Shown here: positions 1 through 9,953 of the stretch, piece after piece
How positions within the stretch are numbered: position 1 is the stretch's first letter
How the letters are laid out: the number at the start of each line of letters is the position of its first letter
IMG/VR virus record: IMGVR_UViG_2617270966_000009
Length of the DNA: 10,273 nucleotides
From: a virus
Lineage: Duplodnaviria > Heunggongvirae > Uroviricota > Caudoviricetes
Reading direction: 5' to 3' (one strand)
Translations under genes and position numbers: made by a program
Notes under the pieces: model-generated
Databases searched by the model: none
What the model was told of the DNA's origin: nothing
Seen by the model: the letters and a program-made list of their open reading frames with translations, nothing else

Positions 1-1254
1 ATGCCAAAACTCACAGACATGCAGATCCGCGCATGGATAAAGGCCGGGGAGCGATTCGAGGGACGCTCTGACGGTAACGGGCTTTATCTTTCATACCGCG
101 AAAACTACCAGACCCCCGTCTGGCGATTCCGCTATAAATTCGCAGGGAAACCCCGCGCCATGCTGATTGGCTCATATGCCGAGCTATCACTATCAAAGGC
201 CAGAGAGACAGCCAAAGAGCTATCGGCTCGCGTTGCGCTGGGCTATGACGTTGCAGGAGAGAAGCAGAAGCGCAAAACCGAAGCACTGGCGAAGATGGAA
301 GCAGAGAAGAACGCTATGCGCGTTTCAGAGCTTGCCGCTGAATACTTTGAGCGTCAGATCCTCCCGCGCTGGAAGCACCCCGATATACTCCGCCGCCGTA
401 TCGACAAAGATATAAACCCATGCATTGGCAGCATGAAGGTGGAGGACGTGAAGCCGCGCCATATCGACGACATGCTGAAAAGTATTGTTGACCGTGGAGC
501 GCCGACCATAGCAACGGACGTTCTGCGCTGGACACGCCGCATATTTGACTACGGCATTAAGCGGCACGCACTGGAGATTAACCCGTGTTCAGCCTTTGAG
601 GTGGCAGACGCCGGAGGGAAAGAAGTTTCCCGCGACCGCTGGTTAACACGTGGCGAACTAATCCGACTGTTTCAGTCTATGCGCACGGCTAAGGGATTCA
701 GCCGTCAGAACGAAATCACGTTCAAATTACTGTTAGCGTTATGCGTCCGCAAAATGGAGTTATGCGCCGCCCGCTGGGAGGAGTTCGATTTTGATAAAGC
801 CGTATGGCATTTACCAGAGGAACGCAGCAAAAACGGCGACGCTATAGACATCCCATTAGCACCGCCAGCCGTCGAATGGCTGAGAGAGCTTAAAACGTTC
901 TCATGCAACAGCGCATGGGTGCTTCCAGCCAGGAAGATGCAAAACAGAATGATCCCACATATTCAGGAAAGCACTTTACCCGTAGCACTGGCTAAGGTTC
1001 GCGCTGAAATGCCTGATGTGCCTAATTTCACGATTCACGACTTCCGACGCACCGCACGTACTCATTTAGCAGCGCTGGGCGTTGATCCGGTAGTCGCAGA
1101 AAGATGCCTTAATCACAAAATTAAAGGCGTGGAAGGTATCTATAACCGTCACCAGTATTTTGATGAGCGTAAAGCGGCGCTGGCGCAGTGGTGTGATTTG
1201 CTGGTGGCACTGGAAAGCGGAAAAGACTACAACGTAACGCCAATCAGAGCATGA
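1..1254 (+). CDS. int: Tyrosine-type site-specific integrase, phage P4 / CP4-57 family
   Basis: 417-aa ORF. N-terminus (KLTD.QIRAWIKAG...GLYL...WRFRYKF.GK.....GSY..LSL..AR) matches the arm-binding N-terminal domain pattern of P4-like integrases as I recall it. C-terminus carries the catalytic signature HDFRRT ... LNHK ... GIYNRHQY (R-H-R-Y tyrosine recombinase core). ATG at position 1, so the att site and any tRNA target lie upstream, outside the window. Confidence 0.9.
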   Translation: MPKLTDMQIRAWIKAGERFEGRSDGNGLYLSYRENYQTPVWRFRYKFAGKPRAMLIGSYAELSLSKARETAKELSARVALGYDVAGEKQKRKTEALAKMEAEKNAMRVSELAAEYFERQILPRWKHPDILRRRIDKDINPCIGSMKVEDVKPRHIDDMLKSIVDRGAPTIATDVLRWTRRIFDYGIKRHALEINPCSAFEVADAGGKEVSRDRWLTRGELIRLFQSMRTAKGFSRQNEITFKLLLALCVRKMELCAARWEEFDFDKAVWHLPEERSKNGDAIDIPLAPPAVEWLRELKTFSCNSAWVLPARKMQNRMIPHIQESTLPVALAKVRAEMPDVPNFTIHDFRRTARTHLAALGVDPVVAERCLNHKIKGVEGIYNRHQYFDERKAALAQWCDLLVALESGKDYNVTPIRA

Positions 1255-1272: not shown

Positions 1273-2223
1273 ATGAAATTACCTGCGCATAAATATTATT
1301 CTTTGGATAAAGCAGCCAAACTGGCCGGATGTGAAGTATCCGATTTAATACACTATGCAGCAATTGGGGTTTTAGAAATATGTATAAAAATTCCACCTAT
1401 TGAATTGTTTTACCATTACCCCAAAAATGAAGATGCCGACCCAGAATTACTTAAAGTTGAAACAGATAGTATTTTTCATATAGATACAAAAGCAGCACAT
1501 GAGAATTATCTTCTTAATCTGAGCAATGAGGCAGATAATCTCGAATCATATGGCTTATCACCGCTTGATTATAAAAATAGCGATAACCATATGTATTTTA
1601 TGAGGTTTTCATACAAATCAGAACATTTCTCAGTTATAGAGCGATACAATGTTGGGAAGGATGAAAGAGATATCGAAAGATGGAACGGTCTATTAGCAAT
1701 TCCGTCTGCGTTCATAGATAACGATGAGCGGGAGCTATCAGAATGGGATGATTGGGAGATCTCCGTATGCGAACTGACGCCTCCGAGATGTGACGAGTTT
1801 AGCAAATCGAATAATTATGAAATCGGAGCTTTTTATATTGACGGCTGGTATGAAATAAGCCGAAATAAAATGTATATAACTGACTATGAATACAATCTTC
1901 TTATAAATGGAGGAAAATATATTTATGACAGACCCATGCACAAACCACCCGCAAACAAGTTATCCAATGATATAAATACGCTAAAAGTTAATAAACGTGC
2001 CGAACGGTACGCAGTCAATAGGGAGAAACTATTAAAATCTGCAATTTATATACTTAGTAAGTATCCAAATGAATGCAGGGGAGTAAGGAAAGAAATAAGC
2101 CCTGAGAAGTGGCGTGACTGTCTTGTTCGTCATTTAGACGAAGTTCCACCACTTATGATAACTAATGAAGATGTAATTCTTAAACAGCTGCGATCTGCGG
2201 CAAATGGCAAAGTGGATAGTTAA
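1273..2223 (+). CDS. Hypothetical protein, AT-rich orphan gene with putative N-terminal HTH-like segment; function unknown
   Basis: 316-aa ORF starting 19 nt after the int stop, with GAGAGG upstream of the ATG. Composition is clearly more AT-rich than its neighbours (hand count about 38% GC in the first 60 nt versus about 55% at the start of int). N-terminus (YSLDKAAKLAGCEVSDLIHYAAIG) resembles an excisionase/MerR-type helix-turn-helix; the rest is rich in Y/N/K/E/D with no motif I recognise. Followed by a hairpin plus T-run at 2234-2261. Confidence 0.75.
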   Translation: MKLPAHKYYSLDKAAKLAGCEVSDLIHYAAIGVLEICIKIPPIELFYHYPKNEDADPELLKVETDSIFHIDTKAAHENYLLNLSNEADNLESYGLSPLDYKNSDNHMYFMRFSYKSEHFSVIERYNVGKDERDIERWNGLLAIPSAFIDNDERELSEWDDWEISVCELTPPRCDEFSKSNNYEIGAFYIDGWYEISRNKMYITDYEYNLLINGGKYIYDRPMHKPPANKLSNDINTLKVNKRAERYAVNREKLLKSAIYILSKYPNECRGVRKEISPEKWRDCLVRHLDEVPPLMITNEDVILKQLRSAANGKVDS

Positions 2224-2233
2224 CTTGCTATAG

Positions 2234-2261
2234 AGGTACTGCAAAATTACAGTACCTTTTC
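2234..2261 (+). terminator. Putative rho-independent terminator after the AT-rich gene
   Basis: Perfect 8-bp inverted repeat AGGTACTG (2234-2241) / CAGTACCT (2250-2257) with an 8-nt loop, followed by TTTT. The stem is AT-rich, so moderate strength. Confidence 0.5.
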
Positions 2262-2329
2262 ATTGTATATCTATACAGCTAGATTTCTCGTAACGAAGCA
2301 ACAACTACCGCTAAGAGGTTACGGGAATC

Positions 2330-2533
2330 ATGAACATCGACACTATCCCTACAAAAGGCTATATCAGACGCTTCCGCCTTGCTGAATTGCTGGGCGTTAG
2401 TGTTTCAACCATTGATCGCAAAGTTCGCAGCGGCTCGCTACCGCGCCCGGTAAAGCTGGGGGAGAAGATTACCGCCTTTGATGCGGTAGAGATTAATAAC
2501 TGGCTGGCGGAGCGCCGGGGAAAGGTGGCGTAA
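2330..2533 (+). CDS. alpA: AlpA-family phage transcriptional regulator (HTH_17-type)
   Basis: 67-aa ORF with RBS AAGAGG upstream. LAELLGVSVSTIDRKVRSGSLPRPVKLGEK...AFDAVEINNWLAER matches the AlpA/excisionase-like HTH pattern (ligand-free HTH followed by a conserved W). Position after int is the canonical AlpA location in PICIs and CP4-57-like islands. Confidence 0.85.
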   Translation: MNIDTIPTKGYIRRFRLAELLGVSVSTIDRKVRSGSLPRPVKLGEKITAFDAVEINNWLAERRGKVA

Positions 2534-2967
2534 TGAAAAAGAAAAACCGCCCCGTACAGCAGGCGGCTAACTCAGATATTCGCACGTCTGATATTACGCC
2601 GACCACCAGCCCGGTACAAGTACCTAAGCGAACCCCAAAGAAACACCGCGCCCGCGTCTATATGCTGCGTACTGGCGTAGAGGGATGGACAGAAAACGAC
2701 ATTCTGCGATATTGCCGCCTTTCATCTGGAAGGAACTACGCCAGCGAGTTAGAGCGCAGGCTTGATATTCAGCTTGAGCGTATAGACGAAAAGAACCCCG
2801 ACGGGATAGGGTCACATTTACGCTATCGCTTTACCGGGCGCGGTGACGTTCTAAAAGTTATTCGGCTTGTGAACCATAACGCCGACGCTGGCGGCTATCA
2901 GGGACTTTCTCAGCCTGAAATTGCCGACATTCTCAACCTATACCCGGACAATCTCACCGCCGCCTAA
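2533..2967 (+). CDS. Hypothetical protein with basic, low-complexity N-terminus
   Basis: 144-aa ORF whose ATG overlaps the alpA stop (TAATG), indicating translational coupling. N-terminal 40 residues are rich in K/R/P/T. No recognisable catalytic motif. Confidence 0.65.
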   Translation: MKKKNRPVQQAANSDIRTSDITPTTSPVQVPKRTPKKHRARVYMLRTGVEGWTENDILRYCRLSSGRNYASELERRLDIQLERIDEKNPDGIGSHLRYRFTGRGDVLKVIRLVNHNADAGGYQGLSQPEIADILNLYPDNLTAA

Positions 2968-2979
2968 CGGAGACTGAAA

Positions 2980-3813
2980 ATGAACATCGAAAAAAGCAGA
3001 TTAATTTCTGAGGCCGCCCCTCATCTGAACGCCTATCAGGGCACAATTAACGGTAATGAATTTGCCGCAATTGTCCCGGTTATTCCTGGTCATATCGGTG
3101 GGCGTGAAACCAATATTGTTAGCGCAAAAGCGTTACACAAAGCGTTGGGCGTGGGAAAAGACTTCTCTACATGGATCACTGATCGCATCTCTGAATATGA
3201 CTTCACCATTGGGCACGATTACTCAGTCCATAAAACAATTTCCCCAAATTTGGGGAAAAGCCCGAATGGCGCGGCTTACAGCAAGATTAAGCAGTCTGGC
3301 AGACCCGGCAAAGACTATCTGTTAAGTGTCGGAATGGCGAAAGAACTGGCAATGATCGAACGCAATGATCAGGGTCGCGCTATCCGCCGTTATTTCATCC
3401 AGTGCGAGGAAGAATTACAGCGTAGCGTGCCTGAAATCGCCGCCCGCTATCGTCGCCAGCTAAAAGCCCGTATCAGTGCCGCAAACAACTTTAAGCCAAT
3501 GTGCGATGCGCTGAATATGGCCCGTGCCGAGATGGGTAAAGCGACGCAGCAGCGCCACTACAGCAACGAGAGCAACATGATCGCCCGTATCGTGCTGGGT
3601 GGCATGACGGCGAAGCAGTGGGCGCAGGCAAATGGCATTACTGGCGAACCACGGGACAGCATGAACGCAGCACAGCTTGAACACCTCGCCTATCTCGAAA
3701 GCACCAATATCACGTTAATTGATATGGGCATGGAATATGAGCAGCGCAAAGGAGAACTCCCCCGCCTGTCGCAACGCTGGCTCGCTAAACGTCTGGAGGT
3801 AAACCATGCGTAA
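2980..3813 (+). CDS. Phage antirepressor / regulatory protein-like (Bro-N / KilA-N / Rha / AntA-type N-terminal domain)
   Basis: 277-aa ORF with RBS GGAGA 7 nt upstream. N-terminal region (NEFAAIVPVIPGHIGG...NIVSAKALHKALGVGKDFSTWITDRI...DYLLSVGMAKELAMIERNDQGRAIRRYFIQCEEEL) has the layout of phage antirepressor-type DNA-binding domains. The exact family cannot be resolved by eye. Confidence 0.7.
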   Translation: MNIEKSRLISEAAPHLNAYQGTINGNEFAAIVPVIPGHIGGRETNIVSAKALHKALGVGKDFSTWITDRISEYDFTIGHDYSVHKTISPNLGKSPNGAAYSKIKQSGRPGKDYLLSVGMAKELAMIERNDQGRAIRRYFIQCEEELQRSVPEIAARYRRQLKARISAANNFKPMCDALNMARAEMGKATQQRHYSNESNMIARIVLGGMTAKQWAQANGITGEPRDSMNAAQLEHLAYLESTNITLIDMGMEYEQRKGELPRLSQRWLAKRLEVNHA

Positions 3814-3988
3814 CCATAATCCGATGCCGGGAAGCCGTTACAAGGACAGTCACGGGGCTGTAGTGACCGTACAGCGCGTCGAGCATAACCGAGTGACCTT
3901 TTACCGCGAGGGCTATCAGTCGCCATGTGTTCAGCCTTTGGAGAGATTCGTTAATGAGTTCGTGGAGGTGCGCCGTGATACTGAATGA
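3806..3988 (+). CDS. Small hypothetical protein (60 aa)
   Basis: ATG at 3806 overlaps the stop of the upstream gene (ATGcgTAA) and is preceded by GGAGGT, suggesting translational coupling. Resembles small conserved prophage proteins, but I cannot name the family with confidence. Confidence 0.5.
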   Translation: MRNHNPMPGSRYKDSHGAVVTVQRVEHNRVTFYREGYQSPCVQPLERFVNEFVEVRRDTE

Positions 3989-4160
3989 ACCTGCCGCCCA
4001 GAAAGAAGCCTTTAATCTGGCTAGCCTGTTAACAAATGTTAACCCTTACAACCTTATAAAACCAAAGGTCGCGAACGGCTGCCTGTTATCAATTGTTATG
4101 GTTAATGACTTAGCAAAACTTAGCCTGAACCTCACAAAACCTGACATCCACGCACGGGGA
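3989..4160 (+). promoter_or_regulatory. Putative promoter/operator region for the downstream replication operon
   Basis: GTTAACAAATGTTAAC at 4028-4043 is two palindromic GTTAAC hexamers spaced exactly 10 bp centre to centre. It is followed by CCTTACAACCTTA and a TATAAA box (4055-4060). No convincing sigma70 -35 at canonical spacing, which would fit an activator-dependent promoter. The call is weak because a long open + frame runs through this region. Confidence 0.3.
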
Positions 4161-4694
4161 ATGACGACAAATGATGACATTTTAAACCAAGAAATAATCA
4201 CCTCTAAAAAGCTGATTGTGGGGAATAAATTCCCCCTGCTGGCTGGTGGTATGAACTGGATTGCTACCGTTGTGAACCGTTCCACATCGACTTTCGCGAC
4301 AAATACGCGTGCGCTGGAAGATTTATTAGGGGTCGTTACGCGAGAAGGTGAGTATTCGGAGTCCATAAAAAAGGGCTTGCCGACTATCGCCAACCCGGTT
4401 TATGGTTATAGCGCACCAGCAAAATCTGGTGCCGGGATTGGCGTCCTGATAATGTTACAGGCGACACATGACGCGCCGAGCGTCTTTTTTTGTGTCCTCG
4501 CATCTGCACACCTCTTTCCCAGCGATATGGCTATAGCCCATATTGCTCAAAAAGTAATGGTGGGCTGGATGGGGGCGGAGCGATCCGCGCCGGTTTCCTG
4601 TAACGCCGGTTACGCCAACCCTGTTCAGCTCACCACCAGTGAAATTGGCGTTTCCGGTGGTGGGAATAAATCCCAGTTACAGGAGGCTGCCATA

Positions 4695-4886
4695 ATGGCT
4701 ACTACCCCTACCCAAAAACCGCAATTTATCTGGATTATCGCAGCAGTTCGCCGCGATATGCCGACAATTACCGCCAAAATTCACCATATCGCCGCAGAGA
4801 CTGAGCAGGAAGCCCGCCGCATTCTGGCGCGGGATCACGTTTGCTTTTTTGCCGGACGTATTCGCACAGGGGGCGCACATGCTTAA
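4695..4886 (+). CDS. Small satellite protein, possibly Icd-like (host cell division inhibitor-like); 5' boundary uncertain
   Basis: Strong AGGAGG 7 nt upstream of ATG 4695 (MATTPTQKPQFIWIIAAVRRDMP...). The same frame is open back to 3927 with in-frame ATGs at 4161, 4527 and 4557, so the true product may be longer or there may be two in-frame products. The upstream segment MVGWMGAERSAPVSCNAGYANPV resembles what I recall of Ash-family proteins; this is unverified. Confidence 0.5.
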   Translation: MATTPTQKPQFIWIIAAVRRDMPTITAKIHHIAAETEQEARRILARDHVCFFAGRIRTGGAHA

Positions 4887-5372: not shown

Positions 5373-5714
5373 ATGATTACTAAAAATTTCCGACTGAATG
5401 CGCTGGCGAATAAGTATGCGTCGGCACTGTATAACCACATTACCTCCACCAGCGGCGGGGACTATTTCATGGTTGATGCGGACGGCCTCGCCGTCCGTGT
5501 GGAAATCGTCAATGGAGTAAAAGGCGTTCGCAGTCTGATCGATAGCTACACACTGGCAGCCATGAAAGTGTCCTACCCGCAGTGGGAAACCGTGGGGGTC
5601 GAGCTTCTTGAGCGTTGCGTCACTAATGACGGATTGACTGACGTCGGGCGTGAGATATGGCAAAGCATGGTTAAAGACATGGGCGCGACCGTGGCAGGAG
5701 GCAACCATGCGTAA
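5373..5714 (+). CDS. Hypothetical protein (113 aa), immediately upstream of and coupled to the primase
   Basis: ATG at 5373 with GAGGGGG RBS (5362-5368). Stop TAA at 5712-5714 overlaps the primase ATG at 5707 (ATGcgTAA). Confidence 0.6.
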   Translation: MITKNFRLNALANKYASALYNHITSTSGGDYFMVDADGLAVRVEIVNGVKGVRSLIDSYTLAAMKVSYPQWETVGVELLERCVTNDGLTDVGREIWQSMVKDMGATVAGGNHA

Positions 5715-8148
5715 TATCGACCTTATCCGCGAAGTGACCAGTGCCGCCGCCGGGCGCTGGCCTTATGTGCTGGCTGGATTGTCTATCGACGTGCCTGATT
5801 CATCGCGCCGCCATTCTCCATGCCCTGCATGTGGTGGAAAAGACCGTTTCAGATTCGACGACAACGGGCGCGGTAGCTTTATCTGCAATCAGTGTGGCGC
5901 TGGTGACGGTTTAGACCTGATTAAGAAGGTGAACAACTGCGACACTACGGAGGCGGCACAGCTTGCCGCTGATGTGCTGGGTATTGATTACCGGGCAGCG
6001 GAAACCGCCCCGGTGGCAGCGAGCCATAGAAGAGAGCAACTGGAAGCTGACCGCCAGCAGCGTGAGCAGGAGCGCCAGAAACAGGCAGCAGAGGATGCAG
6101 AGCAGCGAAGGGCTACGTTTGCCCGTCTGTATGCCGGAATGCGCCAGAGTGCCACACAGGGAGAATCTGATTACCTGCAATCAAAAGGGCTGACCGGGTT
6201 TAACTATCCGGTTATGCCGGATGGTTCGTTATTGCTGGAGCTGGTGGACGAATCCGGCGCAGTGGCAGCAGCGCAAACCATTACACCGCAGGGAGAGAAG
6301 CGACTCCTGACAGGTTCAGCAAAGCGCGGGGCATATCACGCCGTAAACGCACCAGAACAGCCGCAGAGCGTATTAATTGCCGAGGGGCTGGCTACGGCCC
6401 TGTCCGTTCACCTGATGCGCCCGGACGCGCTTACAGTGGCGGCAATTGACGCCGGGAACCTGATCCACGTTGCCAGAGTAATGCGCCGGGAACACCCGCA
6501 GTCGCAAATTATCATTGCCGCAGATAACGACCACCAGCAGGACGAACAGGCGAACACGGGCAAAGATGCCGCAGAGAAAGCCGCCTTATCCGTGGCTGGC
6601 TGGGTGGCGCTGCCGCCGACAGACTACAAAGCCGACTGGGACGACTACCGCCAGCAAAACGGGCTGGAAGTCGCTACGGCTGCGTTTAACGATTCGATGT
6701 ACCAGATTCAGGGGGAAGCCGTGAAACCACAACTACAGGCCATTGTGGGCGGTAAATCCCGCCGTAAAGCCGAAGTCGGAGATATTGCACAAATGGCAGC
6801 CAGCCAGAAAGCGCGGTTGCTTTCATCTCGCTGGGATATGTTGGCGGTCAACCCTGATAGTGGCGCTGTTTACTGCTACGAATCTGGCGTATGGGTGAAG
6901 CTACCAGACAGCGAATTAGAAAGGGTTATGGTGGCAATTTTCGACGAGCACGAAGCCCACTACACCGAAAAAGGGATTAAATCGGTTGTCGCAACCATGA
7001 AGCTGCAAATACCGGTAATTGGTGAGCGGAGCGGGGATCTGATTGGTTTTGATAACGGCGTTTATGACCTCGCTACGCAGACGTTTTCCGCCCATTCGCC
7101 GGGTAACTGGCTGATGAACCACAATGGGATCACCTACACCCCGCCAGCGCTGGGGGAAAATATTACCACCAGCGCCCCCAATTTTACCCGTTGGCTGAAT
7201 CATGCAACGGCTGGCGACCATCATAAGGCCGAGCGTATCAAAGCAGCCTTGTTTATGGTGCTGGCGAAGCGTCACGACTGGCAGCTATTCATTGAGATAA
7301 CTGGCGAGGGCGGCAGTGGGAAATCCGTATTCAGCAGCATAGCAACCACGCTGGCAGGTGAACACAACACCGCCAGCGGTAGCATGATGACGCTGGACAC
7401 CGCACGGGGACGGGCGCAGTTCGTAGGAAAAAGCCTGATTATTATGCCTGACCAGACCCGCTATGTTGGAGAGGGTGCGGGGATTAAAGCCATTACGGGC
7501 GGCGATCCGGTAGAGATTGATGGGAAATATGAAAAGCAGTTCACAACCGTGATAAATGCCGTTGTTATGGCAACCAATAACGAGCCGATGACATTCACGG
7601 AGCGAAACGGGGGCATTGCCCGCCGCCGCGTGATATTCCCGTTTAATAACCCGGTATCAGACGCAGACAAAGACCCGGATTTAACCGCAAAAATCAGGCG
7701 AGAAATCCCGGTGATTATCCGCCACCTGCTAACCACCTTTGCCGACCAGAACAAAGCAAAGGCACTATTACTAGAGCAGCGCGATTCGCAGGAGGCGCTA
7801 GAGGTTAAACGCGGCACGGATCCGGTTGTCGATATGTGTGCGGCGCTTTTTTTCATGAACGAACCCAAAGGCATGATGATGGGCGGAGGTACATGGGCAG
7901 GCCAGCCAGAGCCGAGGACGTATCTTTATCATCTTTATCTGGCGTTTATGGAGTATCACGGTTTGGGTAAACCGCTTTCCGTCAATAAGTTTTCACGCGC
8001 CATAAAATCAGCAGCAAAAGAGTACCGAGCCAGCTACCTGACGAGAAGCATTAACGGCAGAGCGCAAACCAACGTTGGCTATAACGAGAAGGCTGAGGAG
8101 TTCATGCCACGCGCTTACGGTGTGGAGAGCGGGCAGAGTGATGATTGA
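5707..8148 (+). CDS. Replication primase-helicase: primase Zn-ribbon + Toprim + phage/plasmid primase P4-family / D5-like SF3 NTPase
   Basis: Preferred start ATG 5707 with CAGGAGG 5 nt upstream; the track's longer ORF begins at a GTG at 5650 without an RBS. Zn-ribbon CPACGG...CNQCG at 5821-5895. Acidic Toprim-like IIIAADNDHQQDE with DND at 6523-6531. Walker A GEGGSGKS at 7303-7326. Size (813 aa) and domain order match P4 alpha-like and PICI pri-rep proteins. Confidence 0.9.
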   Translation: MRNIDLIREVTSAAAGRWPYVLAGLSIDVPDSSRRHSPCPACGGKDRFRFDDNGRGSFICNQCGAGDGLDLIKKVNNCDTTEAAQLAADVLGIDYRAAETAPVAASHRREQLEADRQQREQERQKQAAEDAEQRRATFARLYAGMRQSATQGESDYLQSKGLTGFNYPVMPDGSLLLELVDESGAVAAAQTITPQGEKRLLTGSAKRGAYHAVNAPEQPQSVLIAEGLATALSVHLMRPDALTVAAIDAGNLIHVARVMRREHPQSQIIIAADNDHQQDEQANTGKDAAEKAALSVAGWVALPPTDYKADWDDYRQQNGLEVATAAFNDSMYQIQGEAVKPQLQAIVGGKSRRKAEVGDIAQMAASQKARLLSSRWDMLAVNPDSGAVYCYESGVWVKLPDSELERVMVAIFDEHEAHYTEKGIKSVVATMKLQIPVIGERSGDLIGFDNGVYDLATQTFSAHSPGNWLMNHNGITYTPPALGENITTSAPNFTRWLNHATAGDHHKAERIKAALFMVLAKRHDWQLFIEITGEGGSGKSVFSSIATTLAGEHNTASGSMMTLDTARGRAQFVGKSLIIMPDQTRYVGEGAGIKAITGGDPVEIDGKYEKQFTTVINAVVMATNNEPMTFTERNGGIARRRVIFPFNNPVSDADKDPDLTAKIRREIPVIIRHLLTTFADQNKAKALLLEQRDSQEALEVKRGTDPVVDMCAALFFMNEPKGMMMGGGTWAGQPEPRTYLYHLYLAFMEYHGLGKPLSVNKFSRAIKSAAKEYRASYLTRSINGRAQTNVGYNEKAEEFMPRAYGVESGQSDD

Positions 8149-8164
8149 AACTTTTACGGCGGCA

Positions 8165-8415
8165 CTTATCCCTACTGCCCTACTAAAAACGAGACGAGGC
8201 CAGACGTAGCAAGGCTTTAAACTAGGTAGGGATATATATTTTTATCCCTACTTATCCCTACATATCCCTACCAAATAAAACAGGCAGTAAAATGCCGTTG
8301 AAGTGATTTAGTAGGGATAAGTAGGGTTATGTAGGGCAACAAAATTGAATGCCTACCAGTCTGAAAGCCTTGCCATTCGTGGCATGAGCCAGTTAGTAGG
8401 GATTGGTAGGGATAT
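8165..8415. repeat. Iteron cluster, putative origin of replication of the element
   Basis: At least 11 copies of a GTAGGG(A/T)T-type motif, mostly in phased arrays with exact 10-bp spacing. Minus-orientation copies (CCCTAC) at 8170-8175, 8178-8183 and three tandem TATCCCTAC at 8244-8272. Plus-orientation copies at 8226-8232, three at 8311-8336 and two at 8396-8411. Located directly downstream of the primase-helicase gene, the canonical ori position in PICIs. Confidence 0.7.
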
Positions 8416-8613: not shown

Positions 8614-8787
8614 ATGGCTATTTCAGTAAAGCCGGTATTGATAAGTGAGAAGCAAATGGAAGCGATAAAGAAAATTCAGGAGGAGCAGCGTAAAAAATCA
8701 GAGGTAGGAGTTGCGCCAACGATCCACGAAATTGCTCGGGGATTAATGGATAAGGCGCTGGCCTCACTGGCAAGCGAGGGCGCGTAA
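8614..8787 (+). CDS. Small protein (57 aa), possible ribbon-helix-helix-type DNA-binding protein / antitoxin-like
   Basis: ATG at 8614 with AAGGGG RBS; the track's longer ORF begins at a TTG at 8587. Predicted short N-terminal strand (SVKPVLISEKQ) followed by helical segments. Stop TAA overlaps the ATG of the next gene (TAATG at 8785-8789). The fold assignment is an inference, not a motif match. Confidence 0.5.
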   Translation: MAISVKPVLISEKQMEAIKKIQEEQRKKSEVGVAPTIHEIARGLMDKALASLASEGA

Positions 8788-9458
8788 TGGGCGCCATTCA
8801 CCAGATATATGAGCATGAAATGTTCTATAACTGGATAGGTGATGGTAAACGATGTGTAGCATTCCACGAAGCGGGACATGCAGTAGCTGCATGGCTTATT
8901 CGCTTAGATATACAGGTTATCGCCGTTATGGATGAATACGGTTACGTTGCTGGCGAACATGTACATGAGGCCAAGTGTTTGGGCGTTGTTAAACACAGCA
9001 TAATTCACAGCCACGATCTCGGGCGTTTGCGGGATAGTAAATCTGGTGTAGTTGGGCAGAATGGTAAAGTTATCCCTTTCATACGTTACTATGCGGATGG
9101 TATAAAGCGCGATGCAAAAAAGGCCGCTTTTGTATCCCTCGCCGGACCAGTAAGCGAAGCCCTTTACGAAAACAACGATATTTTCAACAAAAAGTATTCG
9201 CTACCTCATCGCTATGACATGGCTAACGTAAATGACATGCTCGATTTAATCTGCGCTACAGATAAGCAAATTAACAGGGAGTTAATGCTTTCTAAACTCG
9301 TTGAAAAGACCAAAGCCCTCATGGCTCAATACTGGTATGAAGTAGAAAAAATAGCGCATTTGCTTGAACGGGATAGCATTGTGAATGGTCGAAATGTTAG
9401 CTCGTTAATTGGCATCAACGTCATAGACCGGGCAACGCCATTTTTGCTGGTGGAATAA
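8787..9458 (+). CDS. Standalone zinc metallopeptidase-like protein with HEAGH motif (FtsH/M41-like or ImmA-like active site)
   Basis: 223-aa ORF, translationally coupled to the upstream small gene. Contains VAFHEAGHAVAAWL (HEAGH encoded at 8865-8879), which closely resembles the FtsH peptidase M41 zinc-binding site; acidic residues downstream could supply the third ligand. No AAA+ ATPase domain is present. GC content is visibly lower than the replication genes. Confidence 0.7.
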   Translation: MGAIHQIYEHEMFYNWIGDGKRCVAFHEAGHAVAAWLIRLDIQVIAVMDEYGYVAGEHVHEAKCLGVVKHSIIHSHDLGRLRDSKSGVVGQNGKVIPFIRYYADGIKRDAKKAAFVSLAGPVSEALYENNDIFNKKYSLPHRYDMANVNDMLDLICATDKQINRELMLSKLVEKTKALMAQYWYEVEKIAHLLERDSIVNGRNVSSLIGINVIDRATPFLLVE

Positions 9459-9671: not shown

Positions 9672-9953
9672 ATGGTAAACGACAGTAAAGCCGAGGATCT
9701 GGAAGCAAAAGGGCTGTACCGACGCGCCGCAGCGCGATGGATGGAAGTCATGCTGTTATGCACCGAGGACGATGATCGGGAATGGATAAAGCGCCGCCGT
9801 GAAACGTGTCTTGAGAACGTGAAGCGCCCGCCCGTGAAGGCTGAGGACTTTGGCGACCTGCATAAAGCTGTTACCGAAACGCAACACCGCATGGGGATAG
9901 CGCAACCGAACGGTAACGCCTTCCGGTTAAATGGCGGCAATAGGCAAAGGTAG
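9672..9953 (+). CDS. PerC/Pch-like small transcriptional regulator (tentative)
   Basis: 93-aa ORF with GGGGGAG RBS. AEDLEAKGLYRRAAARWMEVM...REWIKRRRETC resembles the conserved core I recall from PerC-family (Pch) regulators encoded on prophage-like elements. Followed by a strong terminator. Confidence 0.55.
   Translation: MVNDSKAEDLEAKGLYRRAAARWMEVMLLCTEDDDREWIKRRRETCLENVKRPPVKAEDFGDLHKAVTETQHRMGIAQPNGNAFRLNGGNRQR

Follow-up and report, generated by a model that had tools for sequence, protein, structure and literature searches.

Beyond the role of AlpA, how Gram-negative phage-inducible chromosomal islands (PICIs) come to be switched on and how they act early on their helper phages is largely unknown, and no repressor or helper-directed early effector has been identified. 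The question is raised directly by the 10,273-nucleotide (nt) virus record IMGVR_UViG_2617270966_000009, analyzed here over its whole length (the window; coordinates are 1-based on the whole stretch), in which alpA is immediately followed by a gene for a 144-amino-acid (aa) protein and by a gene for a 277-aa protein. A preliminary description of this DNA had proposed that these genes, coupled to alpA, form a module for sensing and derepression of a helper phage. What do they encode, and what part might they take in the induction of the element?

Our analysis identifies the element as a ~10-kb P4-related satellite of the Gram-negative PICI type (EcCIMP1-type). The satellite identity suspected beforehand is thus upheld by a P4-like backbone, a PICI layout and the presence of the same gene block in the published PICI EcCIMP1, where it has gone unstudied. 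We moderately favor the view that the region constitutes the head of the AlpA-activated early operon of this island, operating through the mechanism proposed below. What is new here is that the 144-aa protein can be recognized as a family of its own, narrow, satellite-specific and alpA-coupled, with a probable winged-helix core, as judged from structural modeling. The block would supply the first product to follow AlpA in a lineage that about one in eight complete Escherichia coli genomes carry.

A conserved gene block downstream of alpA

The proteins of the window were scanned against Pfam, PHROGs, NCBIfam (release 20) and PADLOC, and RNAs were sought with Rfam. In agreement with the preliminary description, the open reading frames (ORFs) of alpA, the 144-aa protein and the 277-aa protein are arranged head to tail, all on the plus strand, with overlapping or closely spaced junctions. 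The TAA stop codon of alpA and the ATG of the 144-aa ORF share one A (TAATG; 1-nt overlap), a 12-nt spacer containing GGAG separates the 144-aa ORF from the 277-aa ORF, and the stop of the latter overlaps the start of a DUF4222 gene by 8 nt. A genome scan identified 72 loci with a gene for the 144-aa protein in the Enterobacterales, Orbales (Gilliamella), Aeromonadales and Porticoccaceae, of which 70 could be analyzed for junctions and neighbors and all 72 for integrase and primase genes. The 1-nt stop/start overlap upstream of the 144-aa gene is present in 49 of the 70 loci, with a 4-nt overlap in five more, and a spacer of 11-15 nt leads from its stop codon to the next gene in 52. Since these overlaps and spacers recur to this extent among 70 loci from many genera, the three-gene arrangement is not due to chance.

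The identity of the neighboring genes is likewise conserved. The upstream ORF maps to AlpA by Pfam in 57/70 loci, a lower bound, given that tblastn finds further cases where ORF picking failed, and the downstream ORF encodes an AntA (32 loci), Bro-N (20), Rha (3) or Ash (2) protein, so that an AntA-, Bro-N- or Rha-type protein follows the 144-aa gene in 55/70 loci. A tyrosine integrase gene lies upstream in 57/72 loci and a P4-type primase gene downstream in 59/72. The order of alpA, the 144-aa gene and the Bro-type gene, together with the spacing of their junctions, is maintained across the Enterobacterales, Orbales and Aeromonadales. As read from these junctions, the alpA, 144-aa and AntA genes probably form a conserved, co-transcribed and translationally coupled unit.

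This unit does not end with the 277-aa ORF. The coupled run of genes passes position 3813 through DUF4222 and an Ash/Icd-like ORF towards the primase gene, and the proposed module is therefore the head of a longer operon. The five cistrons (alpA, 144-aa, AntA, DUF4222 and Ash/Icd) lie on one strand, overlapping or nearly abutting, 3' of a terminator-like hairpin and 5' of a P4-like isrK/C4 element and a P4-type primase gene. In published PICI terms, the block extends from the last part of the integration zone into the first part of the Bro zone.

The satellite-specific 144-aa family

No match to the 144-aa protein was found in Pfam, PHROGs, NCBIfam or PADLOC. The anticipation of a middle protein devoid of recognizable domains, placed as a partner would be, was hence accurate, and its slot is conserved. 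Relatives are labeled "hypothetical" or "prophage protein" in their source records. The Prokaryotic Genome Annotation Pipeline applies the name "PM1773 family protein" to some orthologs (RefSeq, L002 and H73), and no model in NCBIfam release 20 matched the window protein or 28 relatives; the name probably stems from a rule outside that library.

An exhaustive HMMER scan of 1.84 billion representative sequences returned 98 proteins of this family at E-values up to 1e-3, many of them fragments and four of them repeat artefacts. The latter are the long repetitive proteins P0305, P0315, P0320 and P0325, which were considered as fusions and rejected. The family has no match in 50,697 phage records, and its hidden Markov model does not match P4 in any of six frames. 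Among 5,426 complete E. coli genomes, 645 carry it (~12%), and a gene for a helix-turn-helix (HTH) regulator lies beside the match in 12 of 12 sampled records of that search. The family is confined to satellite islands. A distant copy was also observed in a Pasteurella record, between an HTH gene and a Rha gene.

Comparison of closely related loci revealed that the 144-aa protein is retained while its surroundings change. Proteins 88% identical to it are paired with integrases of 28% (L004-L007) or 90% (L008-L009) identity, with AlpA alleles that are about 25% or 77% identical, and with an AntA-type (L004-L006) or Bro-N-type (L007-L009) gene downstream. The protein thus looks like a conserved core between two exchangeable modules. 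Because att sites, AlpA allele, Bro-type neighbor and origin iterons vary independently of the 144-aa protein, they are unlikely to be its targets.

The bias towards K, R, P and T that had been noticed at the N-terminus is confirmed, with residues 1-42 containing 50% of these amino acids and carrying a net charge of +9, as compared to 20% and -2 in the remainder. An AlphaFold2 model built on a shallow alignment (mean pLDDT 68.5) predicts a disordered segment (aa 1-35), a core of three helices and a beta-hairpin (aa 36-100; strands 81-87 and 94-100) and two well-predicted C-terminal helices. The most conserved columns of the family (KKxRA, GxTEN, LSSGRNY and NPDGIGxHxRYR) map to the first helix, the putative recognition (third) helix and the wing or hairpin. 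Furthermore, three distant members present sub-threshold matches to the Pfam HTH_91 "winged helix" model over the same core (for example P0322, aa 40-104, E 3.5e-4, 20.7 bits against a cut-off of 27). In the PDB, neither sequence nor profile searches returned anything significant. The predicted structure is consistent with a probable winged-helix-like core preceded by a disordered basic tail, and on this model the 144-aa protein looks like a DNA-binding protein. The near invariance of the putative contact residues across orders points to a target that would itself be conserved.

The AntA-domain protein

Profile searches for antirepressor families, which had been suggested as a check, assign the 277-aa protein to AntA/AntB (PF08346; aa 47-129, E 1.4e-21, 77.2 bits against a cut-off of 27) and to the PHROG "anti-repressor Ant" (E 1e-37). 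Two domains can be distinguished: the N-domain, of AntA type, covers about aa 31-130 (nt 3070-3369), and the C-domain about aa 135-277. Searches with jackhmmer link the AntA and Bro-N sets, and by sequence the protein is a member of the AntA/Bro-N/Rha "antirepressor-like" (Bro) network. The model of the N-domain matches the APSES domains of Mbp1 and Bqt4, and the predicted domain resembles the DNA-binding APSES/KilA-N fold. The C-domain is helical and highly conserved, matches PHROG 2657 and presents a weak match to the PADLOC candidate family PDC-S22 (E 4.5e-11). It is seen only in combination with AntA heads, and when this domain was searched by itself, the matches were limited to fragments of that family, with no new architectures among them.

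AntA-type proteins are present in 774 phage records, among which only Edwardsiella phage EPP-1 covers at least 80% of the 277-aa protein. Close relatives of the protein carry one of two alternative versions of the middle of the AntA domain (residues about 60-112). Since the two versions sit between identical flanks, recombination reaches inside the domain, swapping a sub-segment of the putative DNA-binding head.

A literature search found no experiment showing that a PF08346 protein binds a repressor, and the 277-aa protein is not specifically similar to either N15 gp30 or P4 epsilon. Tracing of the name "AntA/AntB" to the antirepressor genes of N15 immA was considered and rejected, because gp30 belongs to the Bro-N type and gp32 resembles Ash, and there is no specific relationship of either to the 277-aa protein. 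For this reason, the experiments on N15 and PY54 were not used as functional evidence.

alpA and its leader

The alpA product matches Pfam AlpA (PF05930) with 33.7 bits against a cut-off of 21, and is 35% identical to P4 Vis. Its sequence identifies it as an HTH regulator/excisionase of the AlpA/Vis family, and its position as the putative first cistron of the early operon. In EcCICFT073 as well as in EcCIMP1, AlpA has been described as the master activator that the helper induces; in both Gram-negative PICIs tested, the step that depends on the helper is activation of the alpA promoter, and AlpA relatives activate their own operon (PMC6092414, PMC11773190). Excisionase activity has also been reported for AlpA relatives (PMC10111431).

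The Shine-Dalgarno sequence of alpA (AAGAGG, 2314-2319) lies inside an inverted repeat, and the fold of this leader (2285-2327) has a minimum free energy of -14.3 kcal/mol (z -3.3). On sequence grounds, the repeat could be a hairpin in the 5' untranslated region, for translational control of the master regulator, or an operator. A crude control of alpA-leader folds lends only modest support, with 4.44 versus 3.97 Shine-Dalgarno bases paired and a median z of -1.64, and RNAalifold predicted no structure for the alpA leaders in an alignment in which the arms are misaligned. A stem of ~10 bp around the ribosome-binding site was also observed to recur in unrelated alpA alleles (L004-L075) with compensatory changes in its arms (CGTAAC/GTTACG, CATAAC/GTTATG, CCTAAC/GTTAGG, CTCCTGT/ACAGGAG and CCCCCTGT/ACAGGGGG); these stems often pair the Shine-Dalgarno sequence, with z from -2 to -5.7 in single-sequence folds. 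In six of ten related loci (L004, L008, L021, L048, L057 and L075), the integrase gene is directly followed by the Rfam int-alpA RNA (RF02996), which the Rfam scan did not detect in the window.

Comparison with known satellites and immunity systems

The closest described counterpart of the block is found in EcCIMP1 of E. coli MP1 (L003), reported by Pick, Stadel and Raivio in 2025 (PMC11773190), which carries, as in the window, alpA (204 nt), a hypothetical gene (432 nt), an AntA/AntB gene (834 nt), DUF4222, Ash and Icd. Identity to the window reaches 78% for the 143-aa hypothetical protein, 92% for AntA, 91% for PerC and 94% for a 113-aa ORF, but only 28% for the integrase and 36% for alpA. 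EcCIMP1 differs also in its size (20 kb) and in its location at tRNA-Thr, the closest E. coli relative of the ~10-kb window island residing at yicC/dinD. Its primase is of the DUF927 type, and it possesses captured DNA-ejection genes as well as a second alpA, whereas no packaging genes are identifiable in the window. EcCIMP1 excises only in the presence of its helper Kapi1, by which it is transduced, and its alpA, expressed from a helper-induced promoter, is needed for excision and transfer (PMC11773190). The AntA gene is colored as "antirepressor" in that study and is strongly conserved among EcCIMP1-like elements; no experiment on the AntA or the hypothetical gene is reported there (PMC11773190). 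Like EcCIMP1, the window element would be classed among the incomplete "Type C" PICIs (PMC11773190).

A further relative (L077, NZ_CP148430.1), circular and 12,152 bp long, is deposited as a non-mobilizable "plasmid" of an E. coli isolate from chicken and constitutes a complete related island with int, alpA, the 144-aa homolog, AntA, DUF4222, Icd, primase and PerC genes (identities of 91% for int, 78% for alpA, 78% for the 144-aa protein and 93% for AntA). Similar records of 17-23 kb exist in Raoultella and Klebsiella. These records are probably excised or episomal satellites captured by assembly.

The order of genes in the window follows the four-zone model of Gram-negative PICIs (Integration/Bro/Replication/Late) described by Mageeney et al. 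in 2023, with C4/isrK RNAs in the Bro zone (PMC10111431): int and alpA are followed by domain-swapping Bro-network genes (AntA, Bro-N, Rha, Ash), C4/isrK RNAs and primase. In contrast with the model, no late zone is visible in the window. The 144-aa family, with its place between alpA and the first Bro gene, is not distinguished as such in that study (PMC10111431).

The same backbone can be recognized in P4, whose left operon comprises vis, eta/CI RNA, epsilon, orf151, cnr and alpha. Homologs occur in the window in the same order (int 25% identity, vis/alpA 35%, the CI-region ORF 39% and the alpha primase 38%), and both elements have a CI/C4-type RNA lying within an Ash-family ORF. For the gene that follows vis in P4, translational coupling to vis has been reported (PMC10111431). 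P4 has no homolog of the 144-aa protein and no AntA gene; in the window, three extra cistrons separate alpA from the CI region. Conversely, when the window was searched by tblastn with all P4 proteins, only int, vis, the cI-region ORF and alpha were found, and sid, delta, psu, epsilon, cnr and orf151 were not.

EcCICFT073 (Fillol-Salom et al. 2018, PMC6092414), which is inducible, replicates and transfers, shares with the window int, alpA, Icd-like, DUF4222, primase and PerC genes in the same orientation, its primase being 54% identical over the C-terminal half. It differs in lacking the 144-aa gene and in carrying capsid and packaging genes absent from the window. It nevertheless keeps a 30-aa AntA fragment (aa 24-53, 60% identical; L080 9824-9913) ~110 nt after alpA, a remnant whose sequence suggests that EcCICFT073 is a deletion derivative of the same layout.

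Beyond satellites, the operon has a counterpart in the N15 immA region (an Ash/icd-like gene, a small gene and a Bro-N gene), with which it shares a C4/CI-type RNA, an icd/Ash-like ORF and a Bro-network "antirepressor" gene (PMC4488713). The annotated antirepressor of immA, gp30, is nonetheless of the Bro-N and not of the AntA type, and in the N15 genome the Bro-type gene lies downstream of the Ash/icd-like ORF, whereas the AntA gene of the window lies upstream of the RNA element and should escape it. In the P1 immunity operon c4-icd-ant, which combines the same three kinds of component, ant is downstream of the c4 RNA and controlled by it. That a Bro-network protein of a satellite can regulate the helper by binding DNA, and not as a repressor-binding antirepressor, has a precedent in CapR of PLE, a Bro/KilA-N/T5orf172-network protein that binds helper-phage DNA and represses a helper promoter (2021, PMC8096241). 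CapR possesses T5orf172-related domains and belongs to another satellite family; it is likened to the AntA protein by the role proposed for the latter and not by sequence.

Proposed role of the block and alternative explanations

The mechanism that we propose begins with the helper phage, which would switch on the alpA promoter and thereby, through coupled translation, the co-production of AlpA and the 144-aa protein. The latter, a putative winged-helix-type nucleic-acid binder with a basic tail, would act as an early regulator or architectural factor on a target common to the islands and independent of integrase or att type, AlpA allele, Bro-type neighbor and origin iterons. The AntA protein would bind DNA via its KilA-N/APSES-like N-domain and act through its helical C-domain on the helper, by way of either helper gene expression or helper immunity, and the swapping of AntA, Bro-N and Rha heads in the slot after the 144-aa gene would reflect helper specificity. 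By analogy with P4, the isrK/C4 element would gate the downstream icd and replication genes; the 144-aa and AntA genes, being upstream of it, would escape this gate as immediate-early outputs of induction. The sensing role attributed to these genes is not sustained, since the helper-activated alpA promoter lies upstream of both, which would make their products early outputs and not sensors. Given the predicted folds, the most likely roles are those of a nucleic-acid-binding early regulator for the 144-aa protein and of a helper-directed DNA-binding regulator or anti-immunity factor for AntA. It is possible, though doubtful, that the 144-aa protein is more specifically a satellite-specific core regulator of a large PICI lineage, either a negative regulator or anti-activator balancing AlpA or a factor that directs transcription of the host or the helper; in both cases coupled translation would keep it in fixed ratio with AlpA, and its target would be conserved from the Enterobacterales to the Aeromonadales.

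Bro-network genes in the immunity regions of P1 have been linked to anti-immunity. Those of the N15 immA/immI regions have been linked to it likewise (PMC4488713, PMC10612081), and the P4 gene for helper derepression, epsilon, occupies an equivalent operon. Together with the family and PHROG names, which read "antirepressor", and with the variable heads of the AntA slot, which fit helper specificity, these observations might suggest a helper-derepression module, in which AntA would inactivate the repressor of a helper prophage (as P4 epsilon does with P2 C, or P22 Ant with C2), with the 144-aa protein as partner or chaperone, so that the helper is induced and satellite induction amplified. We regard this as unlikely. 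The names are annotations, specific similarity to gp30 or epsilon is lacking, and the modeled N-domain resembles a DNA-binding fold; both genes, moreover, lie 3' of the helper-dependent promoter, a position that precludes them from being the initial sensor. The presence of EcCIMP1 leaves helper induction and lytic replication unrestricted (PMC11773190), neither gene has been credited with an effect on induction, and EcCICFT073 functions without them. It is quite improbable that the pair is anti-phage or superinfection-immunity cargo outside the regulatory core of the satellite, as the weak match of the AntA C-domain to PDC-S22 and the dispensability of both genes in another PICI lineage could be taken to indicate: PDC-S22 is only a candidate family, the 144-aa protein has no PADLOC match, and the two genes keep a fixed early-operon position with conserved coupling across orders, unlike cargo hotspots, the real variable slot being the one between int and alpA.

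Two further roles have been considered for the 144-aa protein. Its predicted translational coupling to alpA (TAATG in 49/70 loci), its small size, basic character and predicted DNA-binding core, and the activity of AlpA relatives as excisionases (PMC10111431) would all accord with a second recombination directionality or architectural factor, working with AlpA and Int at attL/attR. Such an excision cofactor is highly improbable, and was rejected, as the protein does not co-vary with int or alpA: these are exchanged as a unit (integrase 28% versus 90%, AlpA about 25% versus 77%) while the 144-aa protein stays at about 88%. In addition, its putative DNA-contact residues are nearly invariant across orders in which att sites differ, and EcCICFT073 excises without the gene (PMC6092414). 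A replication accessory that binds the origin iterons (TATCCCTAC) or loads the primase-helicase would be in keeping with the co-occurrence of a P4-type primase in 59/72 loci, the predicted DNA-binding fold and one exact iteron copy inside alpA (2344-2352). The iteron array, however, follows the primase allele, being found only in loci with a primase at least 92% identical and absent from those that combine an 88%-identical 144-aa protein with an 86-87% primase, whereby iteron binding was rejected; EcCIMP1, furthermore, pairs its 78%-identical homolog with a different, DUF927-type primase, and we consider this role extremely improbable.

Several points weigh against the mechanism that we favor. 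A literature search found no functional test of the 144-aa or the AntA protein, and the single transcription unit and its translational coupling are read from sequence. EcCICFT073 completes the PICI cycle without the 144-aa gene or a full AntA gene, and any role of these genes must therefore be accessory or lineage-specific. Finally, the C4/isrK RNAs are absent, at gathering score, from seven of ten related loci tested, so that the RNA-gate part of the model covers only a subset of islands. Should both genes be accessory, the block would represent a helper-specificity cassette rather than core machinery. The 144-aa family nonetheless offers a specific candidate for an early regulator, with the same block in EcCIMP1, for which a working genetic system exists, and is useful as a marker for detecting incomplete (Type C) PICIs.

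Organization of the element

The features of the window are listed in Table 1. The arrangement is that of a PICI, with the integrase gene at one end, alpA and all major ORFs on the plus strand, and a primase module followed by an iteron origin. The integrase and alpA constitute the integration zone of the island, and several small ORFs are interspersed in the plus-strand run. The Pfam, PHROGs and NCBIfam scans identified no phage structural or lysis genes among the window ORFs, and no packaging or capsid-redirecting families (terS, rpp, capsid) 3' of the primase gene.

Table 1. Coordinates of features in the window, with the evidence for each.
Feature	Coordinates	Strand	Evidence or remark
Tyrosine integrase, left end	1..1254	+	Pfam Arm-DNA-bind_3, Phage_int_M, Phage_integrase; 25% identity to P4 Int
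316-aa low-GC ORF	1273-2223	+	Between int and alpA
Terminator-like hairpin and T run	2234..2261	+	Inverted repeat AGGTACTGCAA/TTACAGTACCT, then TTTT
10-nt inverted repeat flanking the alpA ribosome-binding site	2285..2327	+	TTCTCGTAAC ... GTTACGGGAA
alpA	2330..2533	+	67 aa; Pfam Phage_AlpA, E 3.3e-8
144-aa ORF	2533..2967	+	Satellite-specific family; no library match
277-aa AntA-domain ORF	2980..3813	+	Pfam AntA/AntB PF08346
DUF4222 small protein, fourth coupled cistron	3806..3988	+	Pfam DUF4222, E 1.4e-22
Ash/Icd-like ORF, counterpart of P4 eta/cI region	3927..4886	+	PHROG 6928 and 3960; NCBIfam phage_ICD_like, E 2.4e-19
Promoter-like TTGCCG-18-TATGGT	4377-4406	+	Read from sequence
c4-a1b1-like target element, overlapping the isrK-like leader	4400-4452	+	Rfam, 43.8 bits, below gathering score 46.7
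isrK-like leader RNA with intrinsic terminator	4413-4490	+	Rfam isrK, 75 bits (gathering score 50)
C4/CI-type antisense immunity RNA	4553..4640	+	Rfam C4, 76.9 bits (gathering score 45), E 4.5e-14
P4-family primase-helicase (alpha-like), distal in same-strand gene run	5650..8148	+	Pfam Zn_Ribbon_Prim, Toprim_3, D5_N, DUF5906, Pox_D5
Probable origin of replication	8167..8414	.	~10 copies of iteron TATCCCTAC in both orientations, 3' of primase
223-aa ORF	8787-9458	+	HEAGH motif
PerC-like ORF	9672-9953	+	

Matches to the region are found in E. coli chromosomal islands. The orthologous island of strain MSB1_1D, 97.5% identical over 2200-4000, is located between yicC and dinD and is annotated in the order integrase, hypothetical, HTH, hypothetical, AntA-AntB, DUF4222, Ash, Icd, P4-family primase, SSB and PerC; in L001, the orthologous island takes up ~10.3 kb between yicC and dinD.

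Two immunity RNAs, the isrK-like leader and the C4 RNA, both lie inside the Ash/Icd-like ORF, which is 39% identical to the P4 "cI ORF". The leader contains a terminator-like site (4470-4484) followed by a T run, and the promoter-like element upstream may start the isrK/C4 transcript at about 4413. C4/isrK RNAs were also found in three related loci (L004, L008 and L036). Further downstream, the primase is 38% identical to P4 alpha over 812 aa. The iteron of the probable origin has 11 matches with at most one mismatch, as compared to 1.44 expected, a count that none of 200 shuffles reached. The exact extra copy inside the 5' end of alpA is present in L001 and not in L002, and may be due to chance.

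The hairpin upstream of alpA, by its terminator-like sequence, would separate the alpA transcription unit from the 316-aa ORF, which matches no family in Pfam, PHROGs, NCBIfam or PADLOC. This ORF starts 19 nt after int and has a GC content of 35-37%. Because related islands (L002, EcCIMP1) carry a different ORF or none between int and alpA, it looks like the content of a cargo hotspot. Divergent homologs (35-52% identity) are present in L008, L012, L037, L042 and L043. At the other end of the element, the 223-aa ORF presents a very weak FtsH-family match (E 0.0086) and is possibly, as its motif suggests, an accessory gene of zinc metalloprotease-like type; L002 carries it with 100% identity, and L001 and EcCIMP1 lack it.

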